A DNA stretch of 16,800 nucleotides from a plasmid (NZ_CP019922.1); one strand, 5' to 3'. Shown: positions 1 through 15,997, counted from the first letter of the stretch. The notes: a model not told the origin generated them from the sequence alone. Translations and numbers: made by a program.

Positions 1-906
1 TTACTTATAATAGCTATATACTACGAAATATACAAAAGAAAAATATATAAATGCCGTTTATATAAAATTACTTGGATTAGAAAAACAGGGAAAATTATTT
101 CCTATAAACCATCAAAAAATATAAAAACTTTCAAAAAGTATGAGGGAAAAAGTATTAATTTACATCCCCCCAAAAGAAAAAATTTGAAAATATTTTATAA
201 CACCAAACTTTTAAAAAGTAACAACCCTAACAAATATTTTCTCAAGTGCAATCTATTAAAATTGGTCAAAATGCCATAACGTTTGAAGAGCTTGCAATCA
301 AATATATAAAAATCCAATAATATTGCCTAGCAAATCTTATTATTTTAAAATTTTAAAAAAACAAATCCTAACTATGTCTTAAATCTGGATCAATATAATT
401 TATTTAAAACATTAAATAAAGATTATATAGATAATATACTTATTATTTTTAATTCAAAGCCTAGAAGAGAAAAAAAGAATGCCCATTAAATGTAACAAGA
501 TAAGTAAAAAAGAGGAAACAAAAAAATTTTTTGTGTGGAAATTTTTCAAAAAAATAACATAGTTAAAAAGGCATTTAAAAACACTCTCAAATATTAAAAT
601 TATAACATGCATTTATATAAATGCTACAGAACTATCGATAAACAAAAATGGAATTTTTTAAAAATTGAGATAGACTAAAATTGAAGGAGAATTAAAATTT
701 TTATGACAGCAATAATCGTGTATTCATGCTTGACTATGTGTGTAATATATTTTCACTTGCAACTAAAAACATTTTTCACAAAATTAATCAGATTTTGTAA
801 AAAATGTTTTGATATTTTTTTATTATTAATAGAAATGTTAAAATTAATTTTTTATCTATTAATTATTAATAATAAGTTTTATATATTTATTATAATATCA
901 ATAGCT

Positions 907-956
907 TTAATTACAATCAATACAATGATTTAACTTATTGTATTGATTGTAATTAA
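907..956. repeat. Perfect 20-bp inverted repeat with a 10-nt spacer (TTAATTACAATCAATACAAT - GATTTAACTT - ATTGTATTGATTGTAATTAA)
   Basis: Exact reverse-complement arms read from the sequence. No flanking U-run. It lies at the upstream edge of repeat copy A. Confidence 0.85.
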
Positions 957-974
957 GCCAAATGTATCCAACAA

Positions 975-2340
975 GCTAACTACTATTTCTAAATCAAAGA
1001 TCATTAAAATAACTTATTGCTTCATCTCATATGATAACTTTTTAAATTATTTTTTATTAAGACCGGCCATCCGCCAAAACATAATCCCCCAAACCTTACT
1101 TTAGGAAGTTCTTACCTTGGTTTTTTATTTCTTTATAAAAAGAAAGTCTTAAGATTTAAAATTGCATTTAAATCTCTATCATACATATTGAAACTTTACT
1201 AAAACATTCCTTTTTGTATAAAATTAATTGATTAAATTCCCTATCATTATGTTTTTATAATTGACTAAAAAGTAATAAGACAATTTACATAAAAAGTCTT
1301 TTCTTTGAATTTAATTTAAACTTTTCTTATACAAATTAGCAACCCTTAATCTAGATTTAACTCTATTAATAGCGCCCTTTGTCTTTTTAATAGTTTTCTT
1401 CCAGTATTTTTAAGTTTACTTTTATTTTTTATAAATATTTAGAATGATTGTTTTTTTACTTTCACGACTCTTTTTTATTATTTTTTTTATTGTTATTTTT
1501 AATATTTAAGCTCTCAACTACTACTGAAATATAATATTTATTATCGGTATTTTTTCTACTACTAAATTTTTAATAACTTTATTATTATAATGATCCTATG
1601 TAGACATAACTTTACAAATCCTATTTTAGATAAGCTTTATATTCATTTTCTATTCTTATTGGGTTTTTCATTTTATATTTAGGAAATCCTTACGTTTTGC
1701 TTCCCTTTTTAATTTATCTAAAAAATTATTATCTGCGAGGCTTTAATCAATCCATGCACAAAAAAGAGTTAAAGTATTAATCTCCTTTAAGAGTGAAAAT
1801 TTATTTTTATATTTGCCTAGATTAATGCTAAAACTTTTCTTGTTTTTTTATAAGAATCTTTCCTATCACTTAACATTTTGTCATACAAAAATCTTACAAA
1901 TCTAAATACTTTTAAAAATTTTTTTGATTAGTGTTAGAATATATTCTGTTTTTACAAACTTTATCGGCACTTATATACTCTATTATTTTATAATAATTAC
2001 TTAGTGTATATAGAAATGAGATAGCTTTTAATAATCACTGCATATATTTAGTTAATTATCCCCCCCCCCCGAGTACTAGTTACTAACCATAGACACAAAT
2101 GATGAGCTTATGCCCTGTCTCACAAAATAATACTTTTATATTCCTTATGGAAAATAACCATTAATGAATTAAATTGCAATAAAGATCACATTGCCAATAT
2201 TCAATCTTCTAAATTCATCAATAATTTAATACAATATCTTCATCAAAGCTTATAAGAAAAAATATTCTAATTATTTATGCATTGCTGAAAATCTTATTTT
2301 TAATCTAAAAACTACTGACTTATTTATACTAGAGAGAAAG
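975..2340. repeat. Degenerate dispersed repeat, copy A (pseudogene-remnant family), immediately downstream of the partition cassette
   Basis: Shares ordered blocks with copies B, C and D, at about 70-80% identity with indels. One block is 'TAAGATTTAAAATTGCATTTAAATCT' (1150-1175). Another is 'ATCTTACAAATCTAAATACTTTTAAAAA' (about 1888-1916). A third is 'TTCTAAATTCATCAATAA' (about 2205-2225). Stop-riddled in all frames. Confidence 0.7.
2060..2070. repeat. C11 homopolymer tract
   Basis: 'ATTATCCCCCCCCCCCGAGTACTAGT' is an 11-nt poly-C run in about 27% GC DNA, inside repeat copy A. Confidence 0.9.
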
Positions 2341-2482
2341 TTTTTCCGATATGATCAAAAAGCATATTCGGAATCAAAATAAATCCATTTACTAACAAAT
2401 TCATATCTACCTAAATTTCACAGAAATCATAGGTAGATAATTCTTTATTATTTTTTTGTTAAAAATTTAAATAACAAAATTA

Positions 2483-2752
2483 TTATTTTTTAGAAGCTTC
2501 TATATATTCCATAATTAAAGTTCTTATAAAACCAGAAGCTGTTAATCCCTTTTTGTCTAAAATAGAATAAAATTCAATCCAATATTCATATTTCAGTCCT
2601 ACACTTATTTGCTTGATCGTCATTTTTGATCTAATAGGCTTAACATTTGGAATGTTATTGCTAATAACATCATTATCACGAAAAGCAAATTTAGATTTGC
2701 TAACATTTTGTTTAATAATTTCTTCTAAATTAACCTCTTTGCTTATAGGCAT
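2483..2752 (-). CDS. Small (89 aa) putative ribbon-helix-helix DNA-binding protein, ParA partner (ParG/PF49-like, possibly a truncated paralog)
   Basis: The ATG at 2752 overlaps the parA stop by 10 nt, indicating translational coupling. The C-terminal half 'KQISVGLKYEYWIEFYSILDKKGLTASGFIRTLIMEY' fits a beta-strand / helix / G-x-T-x-S / helix RHH pattern. A basic, disordered-looking N-terminal tail resembles type Ib centromere-binding proteins. Confidence 0.55.
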   Translation of the reverse strand: MPISKEVNLEEIIKQNVSKSKFAFRDNDVISNNIPNVKPIRSKMTIKQISVGLKYEYWIEFYSILDKKGLTASGFIRTLIMEYIEASKK

Positions 2753-3483
2753 AAAGCATCTCCCAATCTTGAAAGTTCTAAGACAGATCTACTCTCCGGA
2801 TAATAATCAAAAATCGACTTCTTATATAGCTGAGATTCTGCTATTTTAGCATCTTGTCCAACCTCATAAAGATCATATCCAAAAGTTTTAAATTGCCTTA
2901 GATGCAAATTATGTCTTTTAAAACTTTTATTAAGCATATTGCAAATAATCTTCTCATGTTTAACCTTTTTTCTATAAGATTTTAACAAAGACTCAAACTC
3001 TTCTTTAAAAATATTAATTCCTTCAAGGCTTAAAAATTCTGGGGTCAGTGGAGTAATAACTTCACACATTGCAAGAATAATTCTTCGCTCCCAAAGCTCA
3101 AAACTGGGAGATAAATCAAAAATTGCAAATTCAAATCCCAATTTCTCCAATTCCAAACAAAAATCATCTATCAAATATGGAAAATCTTGCAATTCATGTT
3201 GCACATCTCTTCTAAAAGTTCCACTCGGCACACATGGCAAAATATAAAAATTTTTTTGTATTTGTCTTACTACTTGATCTACATCCATCTTCTTCAAAAG
3301 AAAATCTTTAATATCCAGCTTAAGAATTTCATGATTAAGAAACCATGTAGAAGAACTTGCTTGCTGTATATCACAATCAACTAATATAACTTTTTTTGTT
3401 TTAGATAAATAACTTGCAATATTTCCGCTTAAGGTAGTTTTCCCAACACCACCTTTTTGAATATGAAATGCTATTTTTTTCAT
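2743..3483 (-). CDS. parA: ParA-family plasmid partition ATPase (Borrelia PF32-type), 246 aa
   Basis: N-terminal deviant Walker A motif 'KGGVGKTT' (MKKIAFHIQKGGVGKTTLSG...). Length and overall sequence are typical of Borrelia PF32 ParA paralogs. ATG start with RBS 'AAGGAAG' about 8 nt upstream. The TAA stop overlaps the start of the next ORF. Confidence 0.9.
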   Translation of the reverse strand: MKKIAFHIQKGGVGKTTLSGNIASYLSKTKKVILVDCDIQQASSSTWFLNHEILKLDIKDFLLKKMDVDQVVRQIQKNFYILPCVPSGTFRRDVQHELQDFPYLIDDFCLELEKLGFEFAIFDLSPSFELWERRIILAMCEVITPLTPEFLSLEGINIFKEEFESLLKSYRKKVKHEKIICNMLNKSFKRHNLHLRQFKTFGYDLYEVGQDAKIAESQLYKKSIFDYYPESRSVLELSRLGDALCL

Positions 3484-3665
3484 ACAAACTTCCTTTTAAT
3501 TATTTTATATCACATATTAATTATTTTATATCACATATTAATTATTTTATATCACATATTAATTATTTTATATCACATATTAATTATTTTATATCACATA
3601 TTAATTATTTTATATCACATATTAATTATTTTATATCACATATTAATTACTTTAATCTCTACCTA
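3484..3665 (-). promoter_or_regulatory. Candidate centromere-like (parC/parS-type) iteron array and autoregulated promoter of the parA-RHH operon
   Basis: The iterons fill the entire space where the parA promoter must lie. On the coding strand each unit reads '...TGTGATATAAAAT...', an extended -10-like element (TGnTATAAA), so protein binding would occlude the promoter. This arrangement matches type Ib partition loci. The call is an inference. Confidence 0.4.
3498..3665. repeat. Tandem direct repeat: 7 perfect 21-bp units 'AATTATTTTATATCACATATT' plus 1 degenerate unit
   Basis: 'CACATATT' recurs at exactly 21-bp spacing, starting at 3511, 3532, 3553, 3574, 3595, 3616 and 3637. An eighth diverged unit lies at 3645-3665. 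The array starts 14 bp upstream of the parA ATG. Confidence 0.95.
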
Positions 3666-3724
3666 TGAAGCCCCTTTCACAAAATTTTTTAATGAATTAG
3701 ATCTGATGTGGCCTTAAAAGCTAG

Positions 3725-4800
3725 CAAACTACTATCTCTATATTCACGGCTTTTGTCTCATTCTACGATAACTTTTTAGTTCTTTTTATATCTTATTTTC
3801 ACACCAATAGCATGATTAACAAGCCTAAATTCGGAAAATTCCTGTCTTAGCTTTTATTTCTTTATAGCAATAAAACTTAAGATTTAGAATTGCATTTATA
3901 TCTTTATTATACAAAACGCTGTAAGTTTACCTAGCACCACTTAATTTTAGAATTGTATTTTTAACACCACAATTACAAATAGCTTGCTTGATGAAAAATA
4001 TATACCTACTTTATACAAAAAGGATCCATACCATTCTGATTTATACTATAATCGTCTTACAAGTTTATAACATCCTAAATTATTAATACTTTACCCAAAC
4101 ATTCACATATCTTTAATTAATAAGTTCTCTATTGCTATATTTTTATAAATAACTATAAAGCAAAAAATACCTTGTGTAAAAAGGTTTTTTGATTTACAAT
4201 TTTCTCATGTAACTTAGTAATTCTTAATATAGATTTAGCTCCATTAATAGAAGTTTTTTGTTTTTTTGATAATTTTTTTAGTATTCTTTAAGTTTATTTT
4301 CGTTGTTTTTTTATTATTAGCTTTAAAAGCTTGCTTATTTTTCTTGCTCTTATGTTTAAGAAATCCTTGTGTTCTATCCCTCTTTAAATTTCTCTAAAAG
4401 AATTTATATATAGAGCTTAAGTCAATCCATGCATACAAAAGGCCAAACTATAAACTTTTTTTAGCAATAGAAGCTCTTATTTATATTTATTTGAACAAGT
4501 AATAAGATTTTGCTTATTTTTTTTAATAAAAATCTATCTTGCCGCTTTAACACTGTATTATATAAAAATCCTACACATCTAAATACTTTTAAAAAGTATT
4601 TCTTTTGGTTGGTGTTAAAATATATTCTGTACTTATAAATGCCAACCTTCTCTTTGCCAAATAATACTTATTTTATGTTCTTTATAGAAAAAAGAACTTT
4701 TATTAAAAAAATTTAAATTATGATAAAAATAAAATTCATTTATCACCAGAATTTACTTACAATATTTAACCTTCTAAATTAATTAATAATCTAAAAACGG
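3725..4800. repeat. Degenerate dispersed repeat, copy B (with internal sub-duplication), immediately upstream of the iteron array
   Basis: Same orientation as copy A. Block 'TAAGATTTAGAATTGCATTTATATCT' (3878-3903), a second sub-copy at about 4050-4330, and 'CTACACATCTAAATACTTTTAAAAAG' (about 4575-4600) are all co-linear with copy A. Confidence 0.7.
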
Positions 4801-4960
4801 CACCTAAGCTATTGTCTTATCTATATTAGAAGCCTCTACCGATATCATAAAAAGTATATTCAGAGCTAAAAATAAATCTATTTTACAAACCTACCCCCCG
4901 CCCAAATTTATTTTGAAATTTAGGCGGGCAATTCTTCATTATTCTTTATTAAATTTATAA

Positions 4961-4995
4961 AAAGTCCTAAGAAATTTCTCTCTTAAGGACTTTTT
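4961..4995. terminator. Bidirectional terminator-like hairpin (GTCCTAAGA / TCTTAAGGAC) flanked by A5 and T5 runs
   Basis: A 9-10 bp stem with one bulge and an 8-nt loop, followed by TTTTT on the plus strand and preceded by AAAAA, which gives a U-run on the minus strand. No adjacent upstream ORF, so its role is unclear. Confidence 0.3.
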
Positions 4996-5077
4996 ATAAA
5001 TGGTTAAAGGTTAAAGATAAGTTAAAATCTACAACAGTTTAGAAAAAAAACAAAATTAAAAATATTTTTTTTATTTA

Positions 5078-5121
5078 TACTATGTATTAATTGATATATA
5101 ATATCAATTAATACATAGTAT
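5078..5121. promoter_or_regulatory. Near-perfect palindrome (about 20-bp arms, 3-bp centre) overlapping the promoter of the 5155 ORF; candidate operator
   Basis: 'TACTATGTATTAATTGATAT-ATA-ATATCAATTAATACATAGTA' ends about 30 bp upstream of the ATG. A -10-like 'TATATTATA' follows it. Confidence 0.45.
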
Positions 5122-5154
5122 TATATTATATTAATATATTTTTAAAGGATAAAA

Positions 5155-5817
5155 ATGCAAAAAGAAATAACAATAAACTATAATGAATATACAATTGGGG
5201 GCATAAAAGGAACTTTCTTTGGAAATTCTCAATATGAAGCTAATTATCGAGCAAAAATAAATGGCTTTATAATTGACTTTTTTAAAATTCCCATAAGTTT
5301 AAAGAAAAAATATGAACTTAATATTAAAGCCCTTAGTGATCCTAATTTTTCATCCACAAATATTGCAATGAATTGCATAAATACTTTCAAGCTTATAGTT
5401 GATATTGTTAATATGCAAACCGGTGAAAATTACGATTATGACACATTTATTACCAAAACAGACACAGAAAAAATGCTTAAATATGGAACAAAAATAATTG
5501 CCGCACTAGCAAGGCACTTCGACGAACAAAACAAAACCAACTTTAATGAAAGCTATTATGAATGGGAAAAAGGCTGGATAGATAAAAAATGGATAAATTA
5601 TGAACCAACTGCAGAAGAAATTAAAGAAATTCAAATAATGAATCAAAAATTAAATCCTTTAAAACTCAAACATAGAAAAAAAAACCTTAATAACGGCCAA
5701 ATAAGGCTTTTACAAGCCATCAATAAAATTGAAGATCAATCACAACAACAGGCTACTAAATCAAATAGCAAAACTAAAAAATTAAAAGGAAATCATGGGG
5801 AAAAAACCAAAATTTAA
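5155..5817 (+). CDS. Hypothetical basic protein, 220 aa (possibly a BBD18-like lp17 regulator; identity not verified)
   Basis: Clean ATG with RBS 'AAAGGAT' 4-10 nt upstream. Very long ORF for AT-rich DNA. Lys-rich C-terminus. A terminator-like hairpin lies downstream. The position relative to PF32 and PF57/62 recalls bbd18 of lp17; this is from memory only. Confidence 0.6.
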   Translation: MQKEITINYNEYTIGGIKGTFFGNSQYEANYRAKINGFIIDFFKIPISLKKKYELNIKALSDPNFSSTNIAMNCINTFKLIVDIVNMQTGENYDYDTFITKTDTEKMLKYGTKIIAALARHFDEQNKTNFNESYYEWEKGWIDKKWINYEPTAEEIKEIQIMNQKLNPLKLKHRKKNLNNGQIRLLQAINKIEDQSQQQATKSNSKTKKLKGNHGEKTKI

Positions 5818-5922
5818 CATTTTACTTAAAAGCGTTTAATTTTATTTATTATTATTAAATAATATTTACAAAATTAAAAAAATAAAATATTATATATGTA
5901 AGGTAGAAAACGATCTACCAAT

Positions 5923-5982
5923 AGTCCCCAACACCCCTATTAATCCTCTCCAAATAAGATCGGGGGTAGGGACTTCTTTTTT
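5923..5982 (+). terminator. Putative rho-independent terminator downstream of the 5155-5817 gene
   Basis: GC-containing imperfect stem (AGTCCCC...GGGGTAGGGACT), unusual in this AT-rich context, followed by 'TCTTTTTT'. Confidence 0.35.
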
Positions 5983-6104
5983 AAAAAAATAAAAACTAAA
6001 ATATTTGGTGCCTAAATTAATAAGTTTATAGCAAATAAGAAAAATGAAAATCTAAAAAACATAAATTAACTAAAAATTTGCATTGTGAATATAAAATTTT
6101 AACA

Positions 6105-6575
6105 ATGCTTTAAGATTTAAATTACTATTTCTAAATCAAAGATTATAGAAACAAATCCTCGATTTATTTCATGGCAGCTTTCTAAACTATTTAAAAGAAC
6201 AGTATTTACCAATACATGATCTAGCCTTACTTAAGGCAGCTCCTGTCTTAGCTTTTATTTCTTTATAAATAAGACTTAAGATTTGGATTTGAATTTAGAT
6301 TTCTATCACTTAGAACTACAACTGCCAAAAGGCCAACTGGTTTCTCTTAATTTTAGAGTTGTATTTTTAATACCATAATTACTACATAGTTTACTTAATA
6401 GGAAACATCTATCTGCTTTATGTAAATAAAATCCATAACAACTTAATTTATATAATAATTATCTTGCGACTCTCTATACCACCATAAACCACCAATACTT
6501 TTCTTTTGCTATACAAAAATCTTACAGATCTAAATACTTTTGAAAATTTCTTTTGGGTTTAGAATATCAATAATT
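6105..6575. repeat. Degenerate dispersed repeat, copy C
   Basis: 'CTAAATCAAAGATTATAGAAA' (about 6128), 'TAAGATTTGGATTTGAATTTAGATTTCT' (6278-6305) and 'ATCTTACAGATCTAAATACTTTTGAAAA' (about 6520-6550) lie in the same order and orientation as in copies A and B. Confidence 0.7.
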
Positions 6576-6913
6576 AATTTTCAATTTTTATTTAAAAGAA
6601 TGATAATAATTTAATGCATTATTTAGGGTTTATGAAATAATATTTTTGCATTTCTTATTCGTTTATATTTCTTTATAAGAATATATAATTTTGTTCGAAT
6701 TCTGCTTTAAAAAATGGTTAATTTAGAATATAATTCTAATGGCTAAAATGCTAAAAATGGATATAAATTTGGACTAATTTTATTATATTGAAAAACAAAT
6801 TATCTGTATATACTACAATAATGCTTAACTTTAAATTTTTAAAATGTGTTTACTTGTGCTTTATGGTTTTTGTAAGGTTAATTTTAATAATCAAATTTAG
6901 GGGAAAGAAATTT

Positions 6914-7210
6914 ATGAATAGAAAATTTGTTATTTCATTATTATTTATAATATTAACTTTTTTATTAATATTGGGTTGTGATTTATCAATAAATAACGAT
7001 CGAAACAAGATAGATGGGGCTTCTCATTTTAAAAAGAAATATATGGATAATTTGAATTATCAATGTTTAAGCAAAAAAGAGTCTGAGGCTAAAAATTCTC
7101 AAATTAAACTGGATGAGAATAATAATAAAAATCATTTTTATTCTTCCAGAGTATCTAATGTTTCAAATTACTATGATAGAACTCATATATCTTGCAAAAA
7201 AAATGATTGA
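6914..7210 (+). CDS. Small lipoprotein, 98 aa
   Basis: Internal ATG of the listed 6788-7210 ORF, preceded by RBS 'AGGGGAAAG' about 8 nt upstream. The N-terminus 'MNRKFVISLLFIILTFLLILGC' is a classic spirochaetal lipoprotein signal with lipobox LILGC. Confidence 0.6.
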   Translation: MNRKFVISLLFIILTFLLILGCDLSINNDRNKIDGASHFKKKYMDNLNYQCLSKKESEAKNSQIKLDENNNKNHFYSSRVSNVSNYYDRTHISCKKND

Positions 7211-7421
7211 TTTTTTTTGAAAAATAAAAGCATGCTTTGTTTACAATCTGATTTTAAAAAATTTTAGTTTAGTTGGTAAATATGAGTTTTTCAGTGTCTT
7301 TTTAATAGAAATGCATATATATATATGAACTGTAAGAAAATATATTAAATGTTCCTAAAGTAAAAAAATTCTTAGAATAGGGCCTATATATAATAATACT
7401 TTTTATATATGTAAATAGCAA

Positions 7422-8534
7422 TTAATTTTGATTAATTTTAATTTTGCTGATTCTTTTAAAACCTTTACTGTTAGAAAAAATAATACTTACTCTTTTTTCG
7501 TTATTAATAATCTTTTTATTTTCTTTTTCATAATTACTTCTATATTGTTTTTTTAAATTTTTATTTAAAAACGTTTTTTTAAATCTTTTTTCCCAAATTT
7601 CATAAAAGTCATTTGTTCTGTCAGTTTTTCCATTCATCATCCATATTTTTTTACTATACTTATTTTTAAACTCTTTTATAAAATGATTTGAAATGTCTTC
7701 AATTTTATATTCTTCCTTATATTTTTCTATTGCCAACTTTAAGTTTCTTAATGCATTTATATAGGTTTTTTCATTGTTGCTTATTTTAAGTATTTTTGTT
7801 ATTTGCATTTTTTCTATTTTGTGAACTTCTACTAACTTGTTTGCAATATATTCTTTGTAAGAAATTTTATTTATTTTTCCATTATTTTTTTCTATAGAAT
7901 TCTCTATCTTATTTATACCTTTTATACCTTTAGGTATAACATCCGCAATTGATTCATCTGCAATTGAGCTTTTAGGTTTTATATTTCTTATATTATTCTT
8001 GTTTATAGTATTGTTGATTTCCTTGAAAAAATCAGATACTATTTTTTTATCTTTTAAATATTCTTTTATTTCTTTATTAATTGCTTCCTGAATAATTATA
8101 AAGCGGTGTTTCCAAAGATTTTTGTTTTGTATATAAAATGCAAAGCTTCCGTTATCTTTGCCTAAATGTTTTAGTTTGGTTTTTATTAAGAGTATTTGAT
8201 TTAAAAATGATATATCATATTCTAAGGTCCTGATTGATATTTTTTTATTATCTTTTGCAAGGCATTTATTAACTATATTATGTATTTCTATTGTGGAATA
8301 TGTTTTAAGTTTGTTAGATTTATAGTATTGTTTGTTTTTAAGGTCAATTGCCCAGCATACTTTGAGTATTCGTTGGTATATGGCTCTTTTTTTAGTTAAA
8401 TATGATTTTAGCCTTGAGCGTTTTAATTCTATTAAATTAGAGCTTGCGTTTTTTTGATTGTACTTTATAATTTCTTCTAATGTTATGAGATTATTAAAAT
8501 TTGTATTGACATTATTTTTTATTTTTATTATCAT
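7422..8534 (-). CDS. Borrelia PF57/62-type putative plasmid replication initiator, 370 aa
   Basis: Size, Lys/Asn-rich composition and overall sequence resemble Borrelia PF57/62 plasmid-maintenance paralogs. ATG start with RBS 'AGGATAAG'. It stands alone, without adjacent PF50, PF32 or PF49 genes. Confidence 0.75.
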   Translation of the reverse strand: MIIKIKNNVNTNFNNLITLEEIIKYNQKNASSNLIELKRSRLKSYLTKKRAIYQRILKVCWAIDLKNKQYYKSNKLKTYSTIEIHNIVNKCLAKDNKKISIRTLEYDISFLNQILLIKTKLKHLGKDNGSFAFYIQNKNLWKHRFIIIQEAINKEIKEYLKDKKIVSDFFKEINNTINKNNIRNIKPKSSIADESIADVIPKGIKGINKIENSIEKNNGKINKISYKEYIANKLVEVHKIEKMQITKILKISNNEKTYINALRNLKLAIEKYKEEYKIEDISNHFIKEFKNKYSKKIWMMNGKTDRTNDFYEIWEKRFKKTFLNKNLKKQYRSNYEKENKKIINNEKRVSIIFSNSKGFKRISKIKINQN

Positions 8535-8546
8535 TATCTTATCCTG

Positions 8547-8581
8547 GCTTCTGAAGTTAAATTTGTTGTGGTTTCAGAAGC
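8547..8581 (-). promoter_or_regulatory. Stem-loop in the leader of the PF57/62 gene, immediately upstream of the RBS
   Basis: 9-bp perfect arms 'GCTTCTGAA ... TTCAGAAGC' separated by 17 nt, located at -13 to -47 relative to the ATG on the coding strand. Confidence 0.4.
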
Positions 8582-8689
8582 TTTTTCAATTATTTGGCTT
8601 GCATTCTAAATTCTTACTGCATCACAAACGAAATAATTAGCTTTTTACTATATTCTATAGCAATGTTTTTAAAATGTCAATATGATAGA

Positions 8690-9016
8690 TTATAAAATAT
8701 GACCCATCTTTTTTGAAGCAATTTGTATTTCGTGTTTTGTAGATTTTCGGCTCATTATTTTTTTTGCTTGTTCAATTCTTAATTGAATTGTTTCTTTCAT
8801 GCTATTTGTAATAGGTTTGGGTCTTCTAAAGTCCATTAGAAAATATGTGCAAAAATCTTCTAAAAGGTAAGGACGGTTGTCTACATGGATTGCGCATTTT
8901 AAAATTTTTGATTTTTTAGATATAGTATTTTTGCTAATTGAAAGATTATAAGAATCTTCTAATATATTTTGGAATTCTTTTAAAGAATAAAGTCTTACAC
9001 CGTTAATACTTAACAT
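8690..9016 (-). CDS. Hypothetical protein, 108 aa, upstream of the PF57/62 gene on the same strand
   Basis: ATG start with RBS 'TGAGG' 6-10 nt upstream. No recognisable motif. Confidence 0.55.
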   Translation of the reverse strand: MLSINGVRLYSLKEFQNILEDSYNLSISKNTISKKSKILKCAIHVDNRPYLLEDFCTYFLMDFRRPKPITNSMKETIQLRIEQAKKIMSRKSTKHEIQIASKKMGHIL

Positions 9017-9168
9017 AAATACCTCATAATTTCATTTTATTATATATTGCATGTTAGTTTCAAGGATGTTAGGTTATATGTTGAATACTTTTGTTAGGGT
9101 GTTTGTCAAGAGCTTATTAGATTATGTAGCTTGGGCAGATTGCAGTAATTTGTCTTTCCAAAAAAAAA

Positions 9169-10122
9169 TTACAATAATGTGATATTTTTAAGAAATGGGG
9201 TTACATTTGAAGCTTGGTTTAAGTATTTTTTTTCAATTTTATCTTCTAATAAGGTGATATCGATTCTGATACAGCTATTTTCTTGTATAATATTGATGTC
9301 ATTTAATATAAAGTCTAAGTCATTTAAGTTTAAATTTTTAATCAAAAAATTTGTTCTTTCTAAGAAGATTAACTTTATTTTACCTCCCAACCCATTCTTA
9401 TTCTCAATAAAAGATCTTAATGTTTTTAGAATTTTTTGTTTATTGTTGATAGTTTTTATTTGATTTGAATTTGTTAAAACTAGTTCTTCGTAGATTTTTG
9501 TGCTTAGATTTAGCAACATTCTATTCGTTGTTTTAGTGTTCGTATTTAAATTTTCATTAGTTTTTATATCTGCGGTATTAAGAGTTTTAATATTTGAATA
9601 GCTGATTTTTGTTAAAAACGGAAGTTTAATAGTCTTATCGATGCCTTTTAATAGTAAATTAACTTTTTGGTTGTTTGCTTTGTTTTCAAAAAGGTAAGTA
9701 TTGTTATTTTTTATAATAGGAATAAACGCATTTTCTATATTTTCTTTTCTATAAATAGATCCAAGTATTTTAAGTTCGATTAAGTAAATTTCATCTTTAT
9801 TGATAGCTTTTAAGTCAATTGTGTAAACTTTGACTACCATCATGTCATAAACTATTTTTAGTTTTTCTTCACTTACATAGTTAATATAAAATTCAAGTTT
9901 TCCCTTTAGAATGTCTTGTGGTAATTTAGAAAGTTCATTTGACCTTAATTGTAGACTAATAATTCCGCCTTTAAATGTTTTAAGTGCTATATTCTCTTTT
10001 GAATTTGTTTGAATAATTTTTTCAAAATTAAGTTCAAATTTAAAAGCTATTGGGTTGATAATGAAGATTTTTTTGTTTTTTACAAAGTAAGTATTAATAA
10101 TTGACCTTGGGTCAGTATACAC
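9169..10122 (-). CDS. Hypothetical protein, 317 aa
   Basis: Long ORF. GTG start preceded by strong RBS 'TAGGAGAAATC'. The next in-frame ATG is about 93 codons downstream. Asn/Lys-rich with no recognisable motif. Confidence 0.65.
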   Translation of the reverse strand: MYTDPRSIINTYFVKNKKIFIINPIAFKFELNFEKIIQTNSKENIALKTFKGGIISLQLRSNELSKLPQDILKGKLEFYINYVSEEKLKIVYDMMVVKVYTIDLKAINKDEIYLIELKILGSIYRKENIENAFIPIIKNNNTYLFENKANNQKVNLLLKGIDKTIKLPFLTKISYSNIKTLNTADIKTNENLNTNTKTTNRMLLNLSTKIYEELVLTNSNQIKTINNKQKILKTLRSFIENKNGLGGKIKLIFLERTNFLIKNLNLNDLDFILNDINIIQENSCIRIDITLLEDKIEKKYLNQASNVTPFLKNITLL

Positions 10123-10165
10123 GATTTCTCCTATAGATGCACTTTGAAATTTATATAAATTGGGA

Positions 10166-10184
10166 TTAGATATAATCTAATCTT
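10166..10184. promoter_or_regulatory. Palindrome GATTAGAT-ATA-ATCTAATC in the divergent promoter region between the 317-aa gene and the lipoprotein gene
   Basis: Perfect 8-bp arms with a 3-bp centre, about 45 bp upstream of the GTG start at 10122. Confidence 0.35.
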
Positions 10185-10348
10185 TAAATTGGTTTTTGTT
10201 AGAACAACACCTAATAATAATAGTTTTTTAATTTTAATTCAAGCTCTAAAATTAGAATGTTTTTATTTGAATTAATTATATTATTTAATTTTCTAATTTT
10301 TGAGAAATTTTTTTAAAATAAATATAAGATAAACTAAGGGGGGTTTTA

Positions 10349-10927
10349 ATGAATTCAAAATTTATTTTAAAGTATTTTATTTTGGCGTTTTTTTTAGTTT
10401 CTTGTCAAACTTATCAAATAGCTTATGATAGGTTTTCTCAAGTATTAGATTCACAATATGATATTGGGGTAAATTATTCTAGAGATGGAATATTTAAGTC
10501 TGTAATTTCTATTAAATATGATAAATTGAAAAATAAAAGGGAATATTTTATTTTAGTTAGAGTTGAATCTAGAAATTCTAGTCAAATAAAGCCCGAAAAG
10601 ATAATAACAGATACTAGATTTGAGGCTAAAGGAGAGTTGGTTTCAGAGGATAGCAAACGTGTTGTTTATTATAACGATTTTTATGATTCATATTTTCCTT
10701 ATGATTACACAACAGTGATTACTGAAAAAAATATTAAGGTAGAAATTTATAAATTTATTATTTCAGAAAGCGAATTTATAAGATTTGTTGCCTTGGGAAA
10801 TGATAATATAGCAGCATTTAGAATCTATGCGTTCAGAAATGATGTTATTGTAAGTTTTAATAAGATTCCTTTTAAAAAGTTTTTGGATGATTTTAATTCA
10901 AAAGTTAAATTACTTGGTGGCAGTTGA
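10349..10927 (+). CDS. Lipoprotein, 192 aa
   Basis: RBS 'AAGGGGGG' before the ATG. N-terminus 'MNSKFILKYFILAFFLVSC' gives a signal peptide and lipobox LVSC. Confidence 0.75.
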   Translation: MNSKFILKYFILAFFLVSCQTYQIAYDRFSQVLDSQYDIGVNYSRDGIFKSVISIKYDKLKNKREYFILVRVESRNSSQIKPEKIITDTRFEAKGELVSEDSKRVVYYNDFYDSYFPYDYTTVITEKNIKVEIYKFIISESEFIRFVALGNDNIAAFRIYAFRNDVIVSFNKIPFKKFLDDFNSKVKLLGGS

Positions 10928-11061
10928 CTTAAATTTAAATAATTTTTAAGCCCAAGTTAAGTAATTATTTGTTAAAAAGGATATAGATTAAGGGTGTTTA
11001 GTATAAACAAGGTTTTTGATATTAGTTTATTATAATATCGACTTTAAAATGTTTTTAATAT

Positions 11062-11745
11062 CTAATCTTTTGAAAAATTAATAAATTCTAGTATCGCTTT
11101 TTCATTTCTCAGCAAGAATAGCCCTTCCCTTATTCCATTATGGAATTCTTCAAAGGAAATTAAGATTGTTTTTAAATTTTTATCTTTATCATCTATATTG
11201 TCGTAATAAAATATAAAGTAAGGTCTTCCAGTATTATCTTTAAAGCCAAGAAAATTTACAAATATTGCTGTTTCTTGAAAATCTGTTTTTAAATTGTATG
11301 AGTGACCATTTTTGTATAAAAAAATTCCATTTCCTTCAAGATTTTTAATTTCTAAATTATTGATTGTATTTTTAATTTTAGCAAAACTCTCAATTGCTTG
11401 TAAAATATATTTTATTGATGAAAATTTGGTATAGTATATGCGGTTATTGATTTGAAATTCTAAAAAGATTCCGCATTCATTACCGGCTCTAATTACATCT
11501 TGCTCATTTTTAATAGAAGTTGCAATTTTTTTGTCAATAACAAGATTGATTTTGAATGTAGAAATATGGTTTAAGGTTTTTACATTGTTAATTGCTAAAT
11601 TTTCTGCTAGATAGACTTTATAATTAATAAATATCCCTTTTAGATTTTTAATTTTAGCTTGTTTAAATTCATAGTTTATATTTTGAGCATATATTGCCAA
11701 ATTTTTAATCAAAAATATTAAGAATATAAAAGTTTTATTTTTCAT
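11062..11745 (-). CDS. Secreted or periplasmic hypothetical protein with a type I signal peptide, 227 aa
   Basis: ATG start. 'MKNKTFIFLIFLIKNLAIYAQ' has n-, h- and c-regions with an AxA-like cleavage site and no Cys, so it is not a lipoprotein. Confidence 0.7.
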   Translation of the reverse strand: MKNKTFIFLIFLIKNLAIYAQNINYEFKQAKIKNLKGIFINYKVYLAENLAINNVKTLNHISTFKINLVIDKKIATSIKNEQDVIRAGNECGIFLEFQINNRIYYTKFSSIKYILQAIESFAKIKNTINNLEIKNLEGNGIFLYKNGHSYNLKTDFQETAIFVNFLGFKDNTGRPYFIFYYDNIDDKDKNLKTILISFEEFHNGIREGLFLLRNEKAILEFINFSKD

Positions 11746-11959
11746 TATACAACTTATTATATGATAGCAGTCTTGAATAATTTTAGTAAACCTTTTTTAT
11801 AGATTAAGTCTGAAATTTATAAAAATTTTAGTTATAAAAGTAGTTTTTGTTGATTTTTTAGAGAATATGTCTTTCAATATTTTGCAGAGATTTGTGTTAG
11901 ATGATAATCTACTATTTATAAATCAAGGATTATAAAAACAGCTTTTTCCTTTATTCTGG

Positions 11960-12300
11960 ATAGCTATACAATAATTGTCTTACAATTTCATGCAATTCTA
12001 AATCATTAATACTCTTTCTAAACATTCCTTTTTGTATAGCTTTAATTTATAGTTTTCTATTGCTATGTTTTTATAATTAGCCATAAATATAGGCATAAAT
12101 GTGTAAATTCTAAGCTTTCATCTTTTTTTATCCAAATAATACTTTATTTTCTGTTCTGTGTAGAAAAGAACCCTTAATAAATCCAATTATGACAATGATT
12201 ACATTCATTTATTATTAGAATTTGCCTCCAATATTTAACTTTCTAAATTCATCAATAACCCAAAGATAGTAATCTTAAAGATTTATAAGAAAAAATATTT
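11960..12300. repeat. Degenerate dispersed repeat, copy D; its 3' tail forms the left arm of a perfect inverted repeat
   Basis: 'GTCTTACAATTTCATGCAATTCTAAATCATTAATACT...CATTCCTTTTTGTATA...TTTCTATTGCTATGTTTTTATAATTAG' is co-linear with A (1140-1290) and B (4050-4200). The tail 'TTCTAAATTCATCAATAACCCAAAGATAG' matches the tail blocks of A and B. Confidence 0.65.
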
Positions 12301-12665
12301 TATTTATTTATATGAGCATTACTTAAGCCATTATTCTAGCTTTGAATAATATTTGATCTTCTCTGCAAAAATCTAATTTAAAAAAAAATTTTAAAAATAC
12401 ATGGTAATACTCAATTATTGAACTAATAATTGAGTATTAAATATTCTCCTTTTTTAAAATTAAAAGAATTTATTATCAATATTTACTTCATACCATACAT
12501 TCTTTTAAATAAACCTCTTATCTTTAAGGGGTTTTCTTTTTATTAAATCTTTAAGATTACTATCTTTGGGTTATTGATGAATTTAGAAAGTTAAATATTG
12601 GAGGCAAATTCTAATAATAAATGAATGTAATCATTGTCATAATTGGATTTATTAAGGGTTCTTTT
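12165..12665. repeat. Perfect 121-bp inverted repeat (12165-12285 and 12544-12665) with a 258-bp spacer that contains its own 14-bp-arm palindrome (12406-12438)
   Basis: Base-by-base reverse-complement identity of 'AAAAGAACCCTTAATAAATCCAATTATGACAATGATTACATTCATTTATTATTAGAATTTGCCTCCAATATTTAACTTTCTAAATTCATCAATAACCCAAAGATAGTAATCTTAAAGATTTA'. The inner hairpin is 'AATACTCAATTATT-GAACTA-AATAATTGAGTATT'. Confidence 0.9.
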
Positions 12666-12981
12666 ACATAAAGAATTTGCTATGCAATTTTAATTTTTGT
12701 TTGTAATCGCCAATTATTAAAAATAAAATTATTAAAGGGAATTAATGTAAAATTAATTACCTTTAAATATACTTCTTTTAGAGAATATATCATTACTAAT
12801 ATTAATCTATTACTAATGATATTATTAAATTAAAGATCTATAGAAACATCAGTTTACTTATTATTAGAATTAAAGTTTATGTAAATTATAGGTTAAAAAT
12901 TTTTTGTAATCTTTAGTAAGAATGTTAAACCTATCTTTTATTAAAGACAGGCTTTGTATTATAACAATTTCAATATGCAAT

Positions 12982-14021: not shown

Positions 14022-14258
14022 TCATAAAATGGAGGATTAGTTTTGTAATTGTATATATTTTTAGCTTTAATTGTTCTTTATTAGGCCTTTAATACTCTAA
14101 AGTATTATGCTATTTCGCAAAAATAATTTTCTGGATTATATTAGCTTACATATTAGGATGAGAATTATAAATTTTAGTGCAACAACCTTCTACAGGGTAA
14201 AGGAGTGTATAAAGGCCTCTAAAGCTTTCATTTTCTTTATTTGTGGAACATTTGAAGA

Positions 14259-14414
14259 TTACTTTTGGATTTTTTCTAATATTTCAAGATATTCTAACAG
14301 GGTTTTAGAATCAACTTCATGTTGATTAGTTTTAGCTAGAGCCTTATTAAACTTGCTTCTTATTAAGGAATAAGCATAATTTTTATTTGCACTATGGAAT
14401 AATTTTTTATTCAT
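14259..14414 (-). CDS. Possible small ORF, 51 aa (MNKKLFHSANKNYAYSLIRSKFNKALAKTNQHEVDSKTLLEYLEILEKIQK)
   Basis: ATG start. A 17-bp palindrome 'AGCAAATT-A-AATTTGCT' (14452-14468) lies 40-55 bp upstream. The plus-strand 72-aa ORF on the opposite strand is judged spurious. Confidence 0.2.
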   Translation of the reverse strand: MNKKLFHSANKNYAYSLIRSKFNKALAKTNQHEVDSKTLLEYLEILEKIQK

Positions 14415-14789
14415 ATGATCTAGTGTTTTGACAAGAATGATTAACTTATTCTTAGCAAATTAAATTTGCTTTGTTATTCTTGCCAATGTATTGTTAATTA
14501 CTCCATCCATAATGAATTAGCCCCCTATTATATTAAATTTATATTATAAATATAGCACAGTATTTTTTTAAATTTTTTTAGCGTAAAACAATATATTTCT
14601 AAAGTTTTGCATAAGCTTATTTTATAATGTATTTATAATTAAGTAGTAGTGATTTTTTGTAAAAATTGTTTTAATTCTTCATAGAATAATACGTAGTAGT
14701 CTTTTATTTTTAATAAAACTCTTTCTAAGGAGCAATTAACTTTATAATAAATTATAGATTTAGGATTTTTCTTAAAATAAAGTTTGACT

Positions 14790-14867
14790 ATGACGGTTAT
14801 TTCTTTTTCTAATTTGCGTTTTATTTATATATTTTTTAGTTTTAATTGTTCTTTATTAGGCCTATGA
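14790..14867 (+). pseudogene. Truncated lipoprotein signal-peptide remnant (MTVISFSNLRFIYIFFSFNCSLLGL*); paralogous remnants at 14058-14088 and 15646-15738
   Basis: The 29-bp block 'TTTTAG(C/T)TTTAATTGTTCTTTATTAGGCC', encoding FSFNCSLLG followed by a stop, occurs twice at 28/29 identity. The 5' leaders 14725-14810 and 15583-15670 are about 75% identical direct repeats with RBS-like AAGGAG / AAGGGGG. Confidence 0.3.
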
Positions 14868-15034
14868 GACACTATAATACATTTGCAATACCTGATTTTT
14901 TAATTAATTTGGGATATATAATTTAAAATATGGTATCACCCCCATTATACACCTTAAAACAACTTTAGATTAAGGGGAGAAACACCTTTAGTAATATACT
15001 AAAGATGTTTCTCTTTTTAATATCATTATATAGT

Positions 15035-15391
15035 CTATTTATAGTAGTTCATAATTTTTGTGTAACATATTTTTAAAGGATAATTGATTATGTAGTAAAG
15101 TTTGAATATATTTTTTTCTACTTTATATTTATTAGTTATAATTTTTAGGTTGTTTTCTAAAAAATCGAGATACTTTATTAATAAGTCTATGTCTATTTCA
15201 ATATCTTTACTAGTATTGCAATATCTATCTATGTTAAAAGTAAACGCACGGCGTATAAAGCCCCTACTATAGTATCCAATATTTTTTGAATTTAGGTCAA
15301 TGTTGTTTAGTGTGTAAATAAGAATTATTAAGTGTGAAGATAGCCTATTTTTGCTATTCATACTTAATATTTCTTTTAAAAATTTTTCCAA
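15035..15391 (-). CDS. Hypothetical protein (118 aa from TTG at 15391, or 108 aa from ATG at 15361)
   Basis: An ORF longer than chance in AT-rich DNA, but the start is ambiguous and the RBS is weak. It may be a gene fragment. Confidence 0.35.
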   Translation of the reverse strand: MEKFLKEILSMNSKNRLSSHLIILIYTLNNIDLNSKNIGYYSRGFIRRAFTFNIDRYCNTSKDIEIDIDLLIKYLDFLENNLKIITNKYKVEKNIFKLYYIINYPLKICYTKIMNYYK

Positions 15392-15997
15392 ATAGTGCCC
15401 CAGTAATTTTTATTATTTATCAAATAAAAATATATGTCTTTACATTTATATTTCTAAATTGCTTAATTTGCAAAGAAATATTTTTTACGATTAAATAGTA
15501 GTAGGATAGTTTAGTTCTAACCGTAGTTTTAGTTTATCTGCTATTGTTTGATAGTAGTCTTGTATTGTTGAACGAAACACTTTAAGGGGGATTAATTTTA
15601 TAATAAATCATATATTTGGACTGGTTTTTAAAAGATAGTTTTACTATGGTTTTTGTTTTTTCTAATATATCAAGATATTTATTCATTGTTGGTAGATCGC
15701 AAGAATTTTTATTATCTTTTTTAAGAATTTCGTTGTAAAATTTTAATAGTTTTTTTGAGAATAATTATTCAATTCTAGATTTAATAATGTATTGTCACAT
15801 AAAGCAGGCATACCCCAGTAAACTCAATTTCTAATTGATGGAGTTGTTTTTCTATTTCTGATTGGTTATTTATTATTTCTAATTGTGTTTTTTCTATTTC
15901 TGAGCACTTGTTTTTTTGATTTTTTTTCATAATATTATAGTATATAAAAAAAATAGTATTAAAATTTTCAAGAATATTGGTAATTTATAAAGATTTT

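Follow-up and report, generated by a model that had tools for sequence, protein, structure and literature searches.

The degenerate repeats of the Borrelia plasmid lp17 are very probably four remnants (copies A to D) and one inverted fragment (Dinv) of a single Borrelia IS of the IS200/IS605 type, which have decayed and whose inverted copies have recombined. We analysed a window of 16,800 nt, meaning the whole stretch of DNA under study from lp17, a Lyme-disease plasmid. IS remnants cover 22.7% of lp17 and much of the sequence that separates its gene modules, and their share of the lp17 non-coding DNA is perhaps 45%. The repeat family is an ordinary, already described kind of feature; the links of the IS to a known inversion and to the small RNA SR0726 are modest additions to the known picture.

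Extent of the repeat family

Comparison of the window with itself by BLAST aligned copy A with copy B (E=8e-59, 61% identity across 1.3 kb), B with C (E=5e-42, 72% across 300 nt) and A with C (E=5e-24), in each case in direct orientation, and the blocks are ordered alike in all three copies (repeat families D3-D13). These values, from 8e-59 to 5e-24, bear out a sequence-only reading of this DNA in which A, B and C were direct repeats sharing ordered blocks, and they place the repeats well above chance and apart from low-complexity sequence. The left edges drawn in that reading (975, 3725 and 6105) lie no more than about 15 nt from the true RE ends at 974, 3719 and 6120; on the right, however, A and B were drawn 121 and 151 nt short of their true LE ends at 2461 and 4951. 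The family extends beyond the interval then considered, to a fourth direct copy, D, and to Dinv, and tnpA remnants on the plus strand of A, B and D had been overlooked (Table 1). All four copies A to D share one orientation, which by chance would occur in about 1/8 of cases.

Table 1. IS remnants and neighbouring features of the window
Feature	Position	Strand	Description and evidence
Copy A	974..2461	-	near full-length IS200/IS605-type remnant; element 1-1391 + 1570-1766; 178-bp internal deletion
Copy A tnpB remnant	about 1974-1233	-	tblastn; 10 stops when stitched
Copy A tnpA remnant	2015-2392	+	tblastn
Copy A LE subterminal hairpin	2405..2438	-	terminus alignment; DNA fold -9.1 kcal/mol, z -4.2
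Module 1, 89-aa gene	2483-2752	-	ORF and annotation; between copies A and B
Module 1, ParA	2743-3483	-	ORF and annotation; between copies A and B
Eight 21-bp tandem repeats after ParA module	3454-3675		tandem family D1
Copy B	3719..4951	-	LE to degraded RE; element 1-150, 222-373, 536-901, 1144-1732; three internal deletions
Copy B tnpB fragments	4637-3840	-	TnpB tblastn E 5e-35
Copy B tnpA fragments	4713-4882	+	tblastn
IttA sRNA gene	3' end about 4953-4983	-	between copy B LE end and bbd18; PMC7224557; terminator fold
Module 2, bbd18, 220 aa	5155..5817	+	ORF; PMC3303823; between copies B and C
Copy C	6120..6555	-	tnpB 3' part and RE (element 1380-1766) joined to tnpB 5' piece (567-621)
Copy D	11909..12427	-	RE tip (element 1707-1764), tnpB piece (1270-1431), tnpA remnant (61-420)
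Copy D tnpA remnant	12064-12334	+	Pfam Y1_Tnp 31 bits, cut-off 23; tblastn
D/Dinv spacer, invertible, 238 nt	12296..12533	.	carries bbd07/SR0726; 12296-12427 is tnpA remnant
Dinv	12532..12675	+	inverted tnpA fragment, element 201-342

The repeats derive from an IS200/IS605-type element

Members of the IS200/IS605 family undergo single-strand peel-and-paste transposition catalysed by the Y1 transposase TnpA, and their TnpB is an omegaRNA-guided nuclease. The intact Borrelia element is about 1.77 kb long, with tnpA (Y1/HUH transposase) divergent from tnpB (RNA-guided nuclease), and its ends were fixed from intact copies sitting in different contexts. The Y1 TnpA, the accessory tnpB and the asymmetric ends with subterminal hairpins place it in this family. 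Copies A to D map collinearly onto the coordinates of the intact element, and their DNA matches elements with annotated tnpA and tnpB in B. recurrentis, B. miyamotoi and B. bissettiae; specifically, blastn of copy A against the intact B. recurrentis copy aligned 1415 nt at 72.5% identity and 208 nt at 76%.

At the protein level, tblastn with intact Borrelia TnpB and TnpA gave E values from 1e-9 to 5e-35, and TnpA matched A, B, D and Dinv (E 4e-6 to 2e-15). The reference TnpA scores 140 bits against Pfam Y1_Tnp (PF01797), and the reference TnpB has all three Pfam domains, OrfB_IS605, HTH_OrfB_IS605 and TNB. Among the remnants, the matches above the curated Pfam cut-off are HTH in copies A (34.5 bits, cut-off 21) and B and Y1_Tnp in copy D, while OrfB_IS605 and TNB in copy B and TNB in copy C are weak and fall below it. 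RefSeq annotates only a 54-aa 'transposase' at copy B. Copy C, which contains the site of a 238-bp strain-level deletion (6374-6611, a stretch that JD1 lacks), may reach rightwards to about 6675, judging by similarity to copy A alone.

The earlier guess that the repeats are transposase-like pseudogenes of Borrelia linear plasmids was thus correct, the type being PFam82/IS605, and a search with Borrelia TnpB and TnpA does find a protein family for them (E down to 5e-35). The peptide quoted in that reading, SLADNNFLDKLKREAKRKDFLNIK, lies inside the copy A TnpB remnant at about TnpB residues 78-101. Its description of the copies as decayed paralogs of one gene does not hold, since they derive from an entire IS of two genes with LE and RE ends of its own. 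A TnpB-omegaRNA (OMEGA) nuclease system, which would take an intact TnpB with a RuvC active site and an omegaRNA gene at the tnpB 3' end and RE, was rejected because the tnpB remnants are broken; no Rfam family matched the window or the intact reference elements.

The LE hairpin folds in the intact element, in copy A and in copy B (z -5.2, -4.2 and -3.9), and the stem of copy A is altered in sequence relative to the intact element with its pairing retained. Even the intact element folds only a weak RE hairpin (z -1.2), which the lp17 copies have in degraded form; end alignment recognises the RE tip sequence in all four copies A to D and reveals no terminal inverted repeats. The tetranucleotides flanking LE vary among the copies (GATG, ACTT, TTTT and AATT), so that they define no target motif, and a comparison of copy A with the empty site of B. 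maritima showed no target-site duplication.

This element has been named PFam82 by Casjens et al., who described an IS605-type transposase with numerous fragments (PMC3303823), and IS605B by Delihas, who described its ends and stem-loops (PMC2775950). The lp17 d20 pseudogene and, close to the plasmid's right end, a left stem-loop termed 'free-standing' are likewise already described (Casjens et al.; Delihas 2009). The stem-loop, at B31 lp17 14378-14428 (PMC2775950), overlaps the LE hairpin of copy A and is the LE of a 1.49-kb remnant, at a site where only a degenerate 91-aa fragment had been reported (PMC2775950).

Insertion and decay

In B. maritima the site of copy A is empty, the distance from the RHH stop codon to a conserved palindrome being 55 bp, compared with 1530 bp here. 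Homology to Eurasian lp17 plasmids breaks off within 3-7 nt of the ends of copy B and resumes at 4948, no more than 3 nt from its LE end. B. burgdorferi N40 and ZS7, B. californiensis, B. mayonii, B. lanei and B. carolinensis carry copies in these four slots, oriented as here, and within this set the internal deletions of the slot copies differ species by species. Sharing of a slot does not always reflect one ancient insertion, because slot A of B. afzelii K78 holds a copy 93% identical to the reference, compared with 72% here. At slot B no IS was detectable in six Eurasian species, which could reflect later insertion or loss.

The copies measure 519-1488 bp against 1770 bp for the intact element. 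They carry frameshifts, deletions from 178 bp up to over 750 bp and 2-10 stops per stitched remnant, a count that the earlier description of the repeats as riddled with stops had not given; the exception is the 43-aa tnpB piece of copy D, which has none. No copy in the window combines an intact tnpA with intact ends, and all of them are dead. TnpA-mediated single-strand 'peel-and-paste' would have brought the copies into the intergenic spacers of lp17, where each would have become non-functional and decayed on its own, through point mutations and lineage-specific internal deletions.

Inverted copies at the sites of rearrangement

Inversion of bb_d09-d14 in lp17 has been published (PMC5870499), and small lp17 rearrangements have been described (PMC3303823). 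Relative to B. maritima, the window is collinear to 6078, inverted from 6572 to 11963 (with pieces to 12540), and its collinearity resumes at 12674. The left breakpoint interval, 6078-6572, is within the copy C region and the right interval is Dinv. This bracketing is identical in all type I plasmids, and both intervals hold oppositely oriented IS remnants (here C and Dinv) in both arrangements. Oppositely oriented IS copies, unlike direct copies, have acted as recombination substrates, and on balance we favour recombination between the inverted copies at slot C and Dinv as what gave rise to the inversion of replication block bb_d09-d14/15 that defines the clade. At the breakpoints only family-level similarity (60-67%) is left in the IS core, at which the crossover cannot be placed, and because the decayed copies hide it the older inversion could still be a product of illegitimate recombination. 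Most Borrelia plasmid rearrangements have been ascribed to non-homologous recombination (Casjens et al.; PMC3303823). With about 23% of the plasmid IS-derived, two breakpoints would both fall in opposite IS DNA by chance about once in ten times.

A smaller inversion distinguishes strains. Dinv and positions 12154-12295 of copy D form a 142-nt inverted repeat (I1) that is 94% complementary, with 122 nt of exact match. In N40 and ZS7 the D/Dinv unit (502 bp) matches at 99-99.8% identity when inverted, compared with 90% when collinear, and the D/Dinv arms flip the 238-nt SR0726 spacer between strains. SR0726, which was placed by primer mapping (PMC9108270), is a validated small virulence RNA that is 97-100% conserved and polymorphic in orientation between strains. 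Its mature form occupies 12437-12534, on the plus strand here, and is ended by a terminator-like stem at 12511-12534 (terminator scan); its promoter probably flips along with the gene. The LE-homology test detected no IS origin for the SR0726 body. Rearrangement junctions within the repeats, which the first reading had proposed to look for, are found for the inverted pairs C/Dinv and D/Dinv, but not for the direct copies that bracket the partition cassette.

Alternative explanations

The window is only about 23% G+C, which inflates weak matches, and many self-BLAST matches of 57-60% are of that kind. Nevertheless, the probability that the family is chance similarity of AT-rich, low-complexity sequence is negligible, since the copies match one another at the E values given above, match intact elements of other species at E=0 to 1e-110, and match at the protein level (tblastn, Pfam); such noise was ruled out. 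Segmental duplication of one ancestral transposase pseudogene within the plasmid, which would make the copies paralogous, is quite improbable. It would suit their single orientation, and duplicative rearrangement is a known trait of the linear plasmids of Borrelia (PMC5870499); the D/Dinv arms, 94-99.85% identical within each of several species, are probably a product of local inverted duplication or conversion. Yet each copy has the element's own ends, at which similarity between copies stops, the copies (65-71% identical to one another) are no nearer each other than to intact elements of other species (68-80%), and presence or absence across species respects the IS boundaries. Unlikely, although less so, is that the remnants have been kept for host use, with LE hairpins serving as terminators or RNA motifs and other parts as sRNA promoters, sRNA 5' parts or arms of an invertible switch. 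The copy A LE hairpin sits downstream from the RHH-parA operon, 45-78 nt past its stop codon, and pairs despite its sequence change, in the functional bbd07/SR0726 fragment the 200 upstream bp are a tnpA remnant, the two arms beside SR0726 have been homogenised within each of several species, and conserved IS605B stem-loops occur outside elements (Delihas 2009; PMC2775950). However, only B. burgdorferi has an intact hairpin downstream of RHH, and B. carolinensis a near-intact one, with the other species showing it degraded or deleted; internal deletions vary freely among species, and a strain-level inversion and deletion in JD1 strike copies A and C, both as for neutral DNA. The D/Dinv arms are dispensable, because B. 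afzelii keeps an SR0726 that is 99% identical with no IS arms detected alongside.

Copies A and B bracket the RHH-ParA cassette as direct repeats, and the sequence-only reading saw here a composite-transposon-like architecture from which the cassette could be excised or shuffled. TnpA in trans can in principle move DNA between a correctly oriented LE and RE, as for IS608 and ISDra2, and B's LE hairpin and A's RE tip can still be recognised. Mobilisation or excision of the cassette, whether by homologous recombination or by a transposase acting on these two ends, is nonetheless highly improbable. The longest exact matches are 19 nt (A/B), 21 nt (A/C) and 27 nt (B/C) at 65-71% identity (61-71% for A/B), which makes the direct copies poor substrates for RecA, for which high identity and exact runs of at least a few tens of nucleotides are needed. 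The tnpA and tnpB remnants are all broken, and B31 reportedly lacks any intact PFam82 member (PMC3303823). The cassette adjoins bbd18 in 17 of 17 lp17 plasmids compared (15 species), with a detectable IS remnant on the far side of RHH in 12 and in the ParA-bbd18 interval in 10, and lp17-type ParA and PF62 records in PLSDB agree in number (65 and 66). Without its partition genes the plasmid would probably be unstable. A composite transposon was rejected, as the IS copies are dead and the ParA cargo has one context in all 17 plasmids; divergence leaves A, B and C unfit for homologous recombination, they lack a transposase, and they are presumably now inert.

Comparison with known systems

As a set of IS remnants, the lp17 copies belong to the element known as PFam82/IS605B (Casjens et al. 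2000, 2012; Delihas 2009), with the same LE and RE ends, the same LE stem-loop and 68-80% identity; relative to the published picture, the lp17 fragments are here assigned to four remnants of the whole element, ends included. The family shares its gene content (Y1_Tnp with OrfB_IS605, HTH and TNB), subterminal hairpins and lack of terminal inverted repeats with Helicobacter pylori IS605/IS608 and with ISDra2, and with IS605 also the divergent tnpA and tnpB, whereas the window copies are pseudogenes. Like IS-mediated inversions in bacterial chromosomes and plasmids, the lp17 rearrangements have breakpoints in oppositely oriented IS remnants and include a smaller flip between 142-nt arms seen between strains, although the lp17 copies are too decayed to pinpoint the crossover. 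Site-specific invertible switches such as fimS, hin and shufflons offer a resemblance only: the D/Dinv flip has no recombinase gene or site and its arms are transposase-gene debris, but, as in those systems, a short regulatory-gene segment, here SR0726, occurs in both orientations between inverted repeats.

Identity and layout of the repeat copies

The window corresponds to nearly the entire lp17 plasmid of Borreliella burgdorferi, in reverse complement relative to the deposited records, and lp17 of ZS7, N40 and other strains matches it at 98.5-99.6% identity. B31 coordinates were converted by the relation window = 16803 - B31 coordinate, which was obtained from exact matches of the published primers for the B31 bbd07/SR0726 locus.

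Sensitive self-comparison of the window confirmed that three repeats in direct orientation, termed copies A, B and C, resemble each other far above chance (A/B, E = 8e-59; B/C, E = 5e-42; A/C, E = 5e-24) and share many sub-blocks in the same order, as the sequence-only reading had described. The comparison also uncovered a fourth direct copy, D, and an inverted repeat (12154-12295 versus 12534-12675) in which 142 nt are 94% complementary; the inverted fragment is termed Dinv. In distant DNA searches, copies A and B matched, at 70-78% identity, Borrelia loci annotated as 'IS200/IS605 family transposase tnpA' and 'RNA-guided endonuclease TnpB family protein'. Intact reference elements were taken from B. 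recurrentis, B. miyamotoi and B. bissettiae, and comparison of intact copies in different contexts delimited an element of 1770 bp that comprises, in order, a left end (LE) with a hairpin of approximately 35 nt, tnpA (137 aa, bottom strand), tnpB (377 aa, top strand) and a 118 nt right-end (RE) tail. Copy boundaries were set by mapping the window to element coordinates, with a check of the termini (see table). Copies A-D all carry tnpA on the plus strand of the window and tnpB on the minus strand, and IS-derived DNA amounts to 3820 bp, or 22.7% of the window.

Features of the window, with B31 positions where available
Feature	Window position	Strand	Remarks
Copy A	974-2461		LE to RE, one 178 bp deletion
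89 aa gene (RHH)	2483-2752	-	ORF scan and annotation
ParA/bbd21	2743-3483	-	ORF scan and annotation
Eight 21 bp tandem repeats	3454-3675
Copy B	3719-4951		LE to degraded RE, three deletions
bbd18 (220 aa)	5155-5817	+	ORF scan and annotation
Copy C	6120-6555		RE, 3' part of tnpB and a short 5' piece of tnpB
DUF5425 lipoprotein gene	6914-7210	+	ORF scan and annotation
bbd14, PF62 plasmid-maintenance gene	7422-8534	-	ORF scan and annotation
Further genes			108 aa, 317 aa, 192 aa
bb_d09 (227 aa)	11062-11745	-	ORF scan and annotation
Copy D	11909-12427
bbd07 complementing fragment (317 bp)	12230-12546		B31 4257-4573
Mature SR0726 (98 nt)	12437-12534	+	B31 4269-4366
Dinv	12532-12675		Orientation opposite to copies A-D

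The same reading had proposed that the repeats are transposase-like pseudogenes. This identification proved right, both from the annotated tnpA/tnpB loci and from protein-level comparison, in which intact TnpB and TnpA matched the window with E-values down to 5e-35 (tblastn); the protein-like peptide quoted in its support is part of the TnpB remnant of copy A. Stitched conceptual translations contain 2-10 stops each, the only exception being the 43 aa tnpB piece of copy D. When in-frame stops were masked, Pfam matches above the curated cut-off were obtained for HTH_OrfB_IS605 in copies A and B and for Y1_Tnp in copy D, with weaker matches to OrfB_IS605 and TNB in copies B and C. The copies are members of the IS200/IS605 family, present as inactive remnants, and belong specifically to the Borrelia PFam82/IS605B group described by Casjens (PMC3303823) and Delihas (PMC2775950). 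At gathering thresholds, Rfam gave no match in the window or in the three intact reference elements, and hence no known omegaRNA or IS605-orfB motif occurs in either; with tnpB broken as well, membership in an OMEGA system is ruled out.

The element map also places the 'free-standing' left stem-loop that Delihas reported on lp17, which is the LE of copy A, a 1.5 kb remnant. In a cross-species check this hairpin was intact in B. burgdorferi only and near-intact in B. carolinensis, so there is no case for its exaptation as a conserved terminator of the partition (par) operon.

Other repeats lie outside the IS copies. The 21 bp tandem array is situated immediately upstream of parA and adjoins the RE of copy B. 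It was found in all eight other species checked, with varying copy number, and 8-18 copies have been reported among strains (Casjens 2012, PMC3303823). The array could be centromere-like or an iteron array, and the RefSeq-style ORFs that span it are repeat artefacts. The far part of the plasmid (12869-15690) carries degenerate repeat families unrelated to the IS copies (14528-14836 versus 15371-15690, 65%; 14058-14104 versus 14833-14879, 85%; and a family termed D2), which probably derive from pseudogene paralogues of plasmid-maintenance and lipoprotein genes.

Stability of the partition cassette and origin of the copies

The layout had been read as composite-transposon-like, with direct repeats that would allow excision or shuffling of the RHH-ParA cassette by homologous recombination. 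A comparison that took in 16 further lp17 plasmids, all complete and representing 15 species, does not support this reading. The cassette adjoins bbd18 in every plasmid compared; the PLSDB records (65 with lp17-type ParA, 66 with PF62) give no sign of cassette loss. The longest exact identity between direct copies is 19-27 nt, the elements are dead, and B31 reportedly has no intact PFam82 gene (PMC3303823). This removes the suggestion that the partition genes sit within a novel mobile architecture.

Duplication of one resident copy would be an alternative source of direct repeats. In a joint alignment, identity to the intact element is 80% for copy A, 77% for B, 74% for D and 68% for C, and siblings are 65-71% identical to one another. 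Each copy is nearer to the intact element than to any sibling, none of the copy-to-copy similarity extends past the ends of the element, and presence or absence of the IS in different species follows these ends. For example, in B. garinii, B. yangtzensis and B. tanukii homology to the window restarts at 4948, 3 nt from the LE end of copy B, and on its other side ends within about 7 nt of the RE. Similarly, B. maritima carries a conserved palindrome with 20 bp arms 55 bp beyond the RHH stop codon with no IS between them; the homologous palindrome in the window (907-956) lies 1530 bp from the RHH stop, and copy A fills the gap. On the grounds of these identities, the end-limited similarity and the distribution among species, each copy is taken to have arrived by its own transposition and then decayed. 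This does not extend to the D/Dinv pair, which has the appearance of an inverted duplication made locally or of a conversion product.

IS remnants occupy the same four intergenic sites (slots A-D), in the same orientation as in the window, in N40, ZS7, B. californiensis, B. mayonii, B. lanei and B. carolinensis, with internal deletions that differ among these six plasmids. Slot C, for instance, retains element positions 577-1305 and 5-155 in B. mayonii and 1380-1766 and 567-621 in the window. Such a pattern points to old, once full-length insertions that have decayed separately. A filler of approximately 100 bp in slot B of B. valaisiana, B. yangtzensis, B. tanukii and B. garinii was considered as a solo LE+RE remnant, which is not supported because its scores fall within the shuffle range.

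Palindrome 907-956 (20 bp arms, 10 nt loop) lies just past the RE of copy A. Eleven of 15 lp17 plasmids retain it, and in B. mayonii and B. lanei changes in one arm are compensated in the other; its distance to the RHH stop is 248-266 bp in B. garinii, B. lusitaniae and B. turdi. Possibly it served the par operon as its original terminator, or as a binding site, and was displaced by insertion of copy A. The IS copy in slot A of B. afzelii K78 (1212-2914) matches the reference at 93%, compared with 72% for the copy in the window, but its first 60 nt, including the LE hairpin, are missing. Two further copies (93-94%) reside at 20056-21768 and 22790-24085 of the same plasmid. This lineage may thus have had IS activity recently, or a renewed insertion into slot A.

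The LE of copy B borders a second validated lp17 sRNA, IttA (SR0736), whose 3' end was mapped to B31 11,820-11,850 (PMC7224557), which is minus-strand window 4953-4983. Immediately next to the LE end at 4951 is a strong terminator hairpin (4996-4960, minus strand; z = -7.25). Across the eight species checked, among them those in which slot B has no detectable IS, conservation of segment 4948-5113 is 91-96%. A near-perfect 45 nt palindrome (5077-5121, 20 bp stem) precedes the start codon of bbd18 by about 35 nt. The start sites of the divergent bbd18 and IttA transcripts reportedly overlap in this region, and the palindrome is a possible operator.

Inversions and deletions at the remnants

In Eurasian species and B. 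maritima, the bb_d09-bb_d14 block, which in some includes the lipoprotein gene, is inverted relative to bbd18-ParA. This inversion was reported previously (Casjens et al. 2018, PMC5870499), and the accessible text of that article makes no link to IS remnants. The window is collinear with B. maritima to 6078, inverted from 6572 to 11963 and in pieces to 12540, and collinear again from 12674. These limits place the breakpoint intervals at copy C (minus orientation) and Dinv (plus orientation), and in B. maritima the matching intervals are occupied by two IS copies, X (minus, 4428-5115) and Y (plus, 11612-12556). The same bracketing was found in all six plasmids tested that have the arrangement of the window, termed type I (the window, N40 and four other species), in which unique DNA on the bbd18 side is 84-88% identical and collinear with B. 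maritima and that on the lipoprotein side is 68-71% identical and inverted.

Recombination between IS copies of opposite orientation classically leaves this pattern, and we consider an IS-mediated mechanism somewhat more likely than not. Type I slot-C copies resemble X and Y at only the family level (60-67% in an orthology search), and because the IS cores retain no closer similarity the crossover cannot be placed within them. We regard coincidental location of the breakpoints at IS copies as unlikely. The minimum of cumulative GC skew lies at about 6400-6800 (skew negative over 800-6600, positive over 6800-11000), so that the switch in strand bias coincides with copy C, the left breakpoint, beside the bbd14 replication region.

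Smaller rearrangements among strains fall in the same debris. The 502 bp D/Dinv unit aligns with N40 and ZS7 at 99.0-99.8% in inverted orientation and about 90% when collinear, and this better fit indicates that the spacer between the arms has flipped between strains. The flip, a clear and recent event, corresponds to the 259 bp inversion at about bp 8000 in N40 (Casjens et al. 2012, PMC3303823). JD1 has a 108 bp inversion within copy A (1388-1495) and a 238 bp deletion in copy C (6374-6611), which are probably the 101 bp inversion and 241 bp deletion listed by the same authors; flanking repeats of note were sought at both events and none was found. Thus the bb_d09-d14 inversion, the N40 inversion and both JD1 events all map to IS remnants, and the strain-level variation listed by Casjens et al. 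for the conserved part of lp17 is concentrated in IS debris. In ZS7-type plasmids, similarity to the window is lost from about 6374.

SR0726 within the D/Dinv palindrome

The flipped spacer (238 nt) holds bbd07/SR0726, an sRNA required for heart colonisation (PMC9108270), whose 3' end forms a terminator-like stem (12511-12534). SR0726 is 97-100% identical in all 15 other lp17 plasmids tested, exceeding the conservation of any coding block. It is in plus orientation in the window, JD1, B. lanei and B. carolinensis and in minus orientation in N40, ZS7, B. californiensis and B. mayonii. Within species the arms are homogenised, matching at 94% over 142 nt in the window, at 95% over 268 nt in B. 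californiensis and at 97% over 352 nt in B. mayonii. B. maritima has the largest and freshest palindrome of this kind, between bbd18 and bb_d09, where an inverted IS repeat (4429-5083/5402-6056) of 655 bp and 99.85% identity encloses a 318 bp spacer with an SR0726 homologue.

In its upstream part, the complementing fragment consists of the tnpA remnant from copy D. A derivation of the mature SR0726 body from a degenerate LE of copy D was rejected, since its local alignments to the LEs of the reference, A and B score as expected from shuffled sequence (z = -0.4 to 1.2); near SR0726, an IS origin is demonstrable only upstream of 12427. B. afzelii keeps SR0726 with no IS arms detected beside it, and hence the arms are not needed for the sRNA.

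One could go beyond debris and regard D/Dinv as a cassette that is inverted by recombination and encloses SR0726, on lp17 the non-coding element with the highest conservation; the larger IS-mediated inversion would have moved this cassette from beside bbd18 (Eurasian species, B. maritima) to bb_d09 (burgdorferi group). We consider this proposal unlikely. If it were true, and orientation or neighbourhood altered read-through, antisense transcription or processing of SR0726, dead IS copies would modulate a virulence-associated sRNA. The orientation difference among common strains (B31 and JD1 versus N40 and ZS7) matters for comparisons of SR0726 expression between them. The palindrome also matters for primer design because the published primer P931 has two exact sites in the window, the second in the opposite arm (12569-12599). 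The papers on SR0726 that were searched mention no transposase, repeat or inversion.

Relation to known Borrelia IS debris

The element-coordinate map of the lp17 spacers is precise and possibly useful to Borrelia researchers, as may be the assignment of the rearrangements to IS remnants and the position of two infection-relevant sRNA genes at IS-remnant boundaries, IttA at the LE of copy B and SR0726 inside an IS-derived palindrome. The link between IS copies and the bb_d09-d14 breakpoints and the invertible SR0726 palindrome are modest new observations worth a note to the field. The finding as a whole is real and already known in kind: the repeats in themselves matter little, being a textbook case of the PFam82/IS605 debris known to fill Borrelia linear plasmids.
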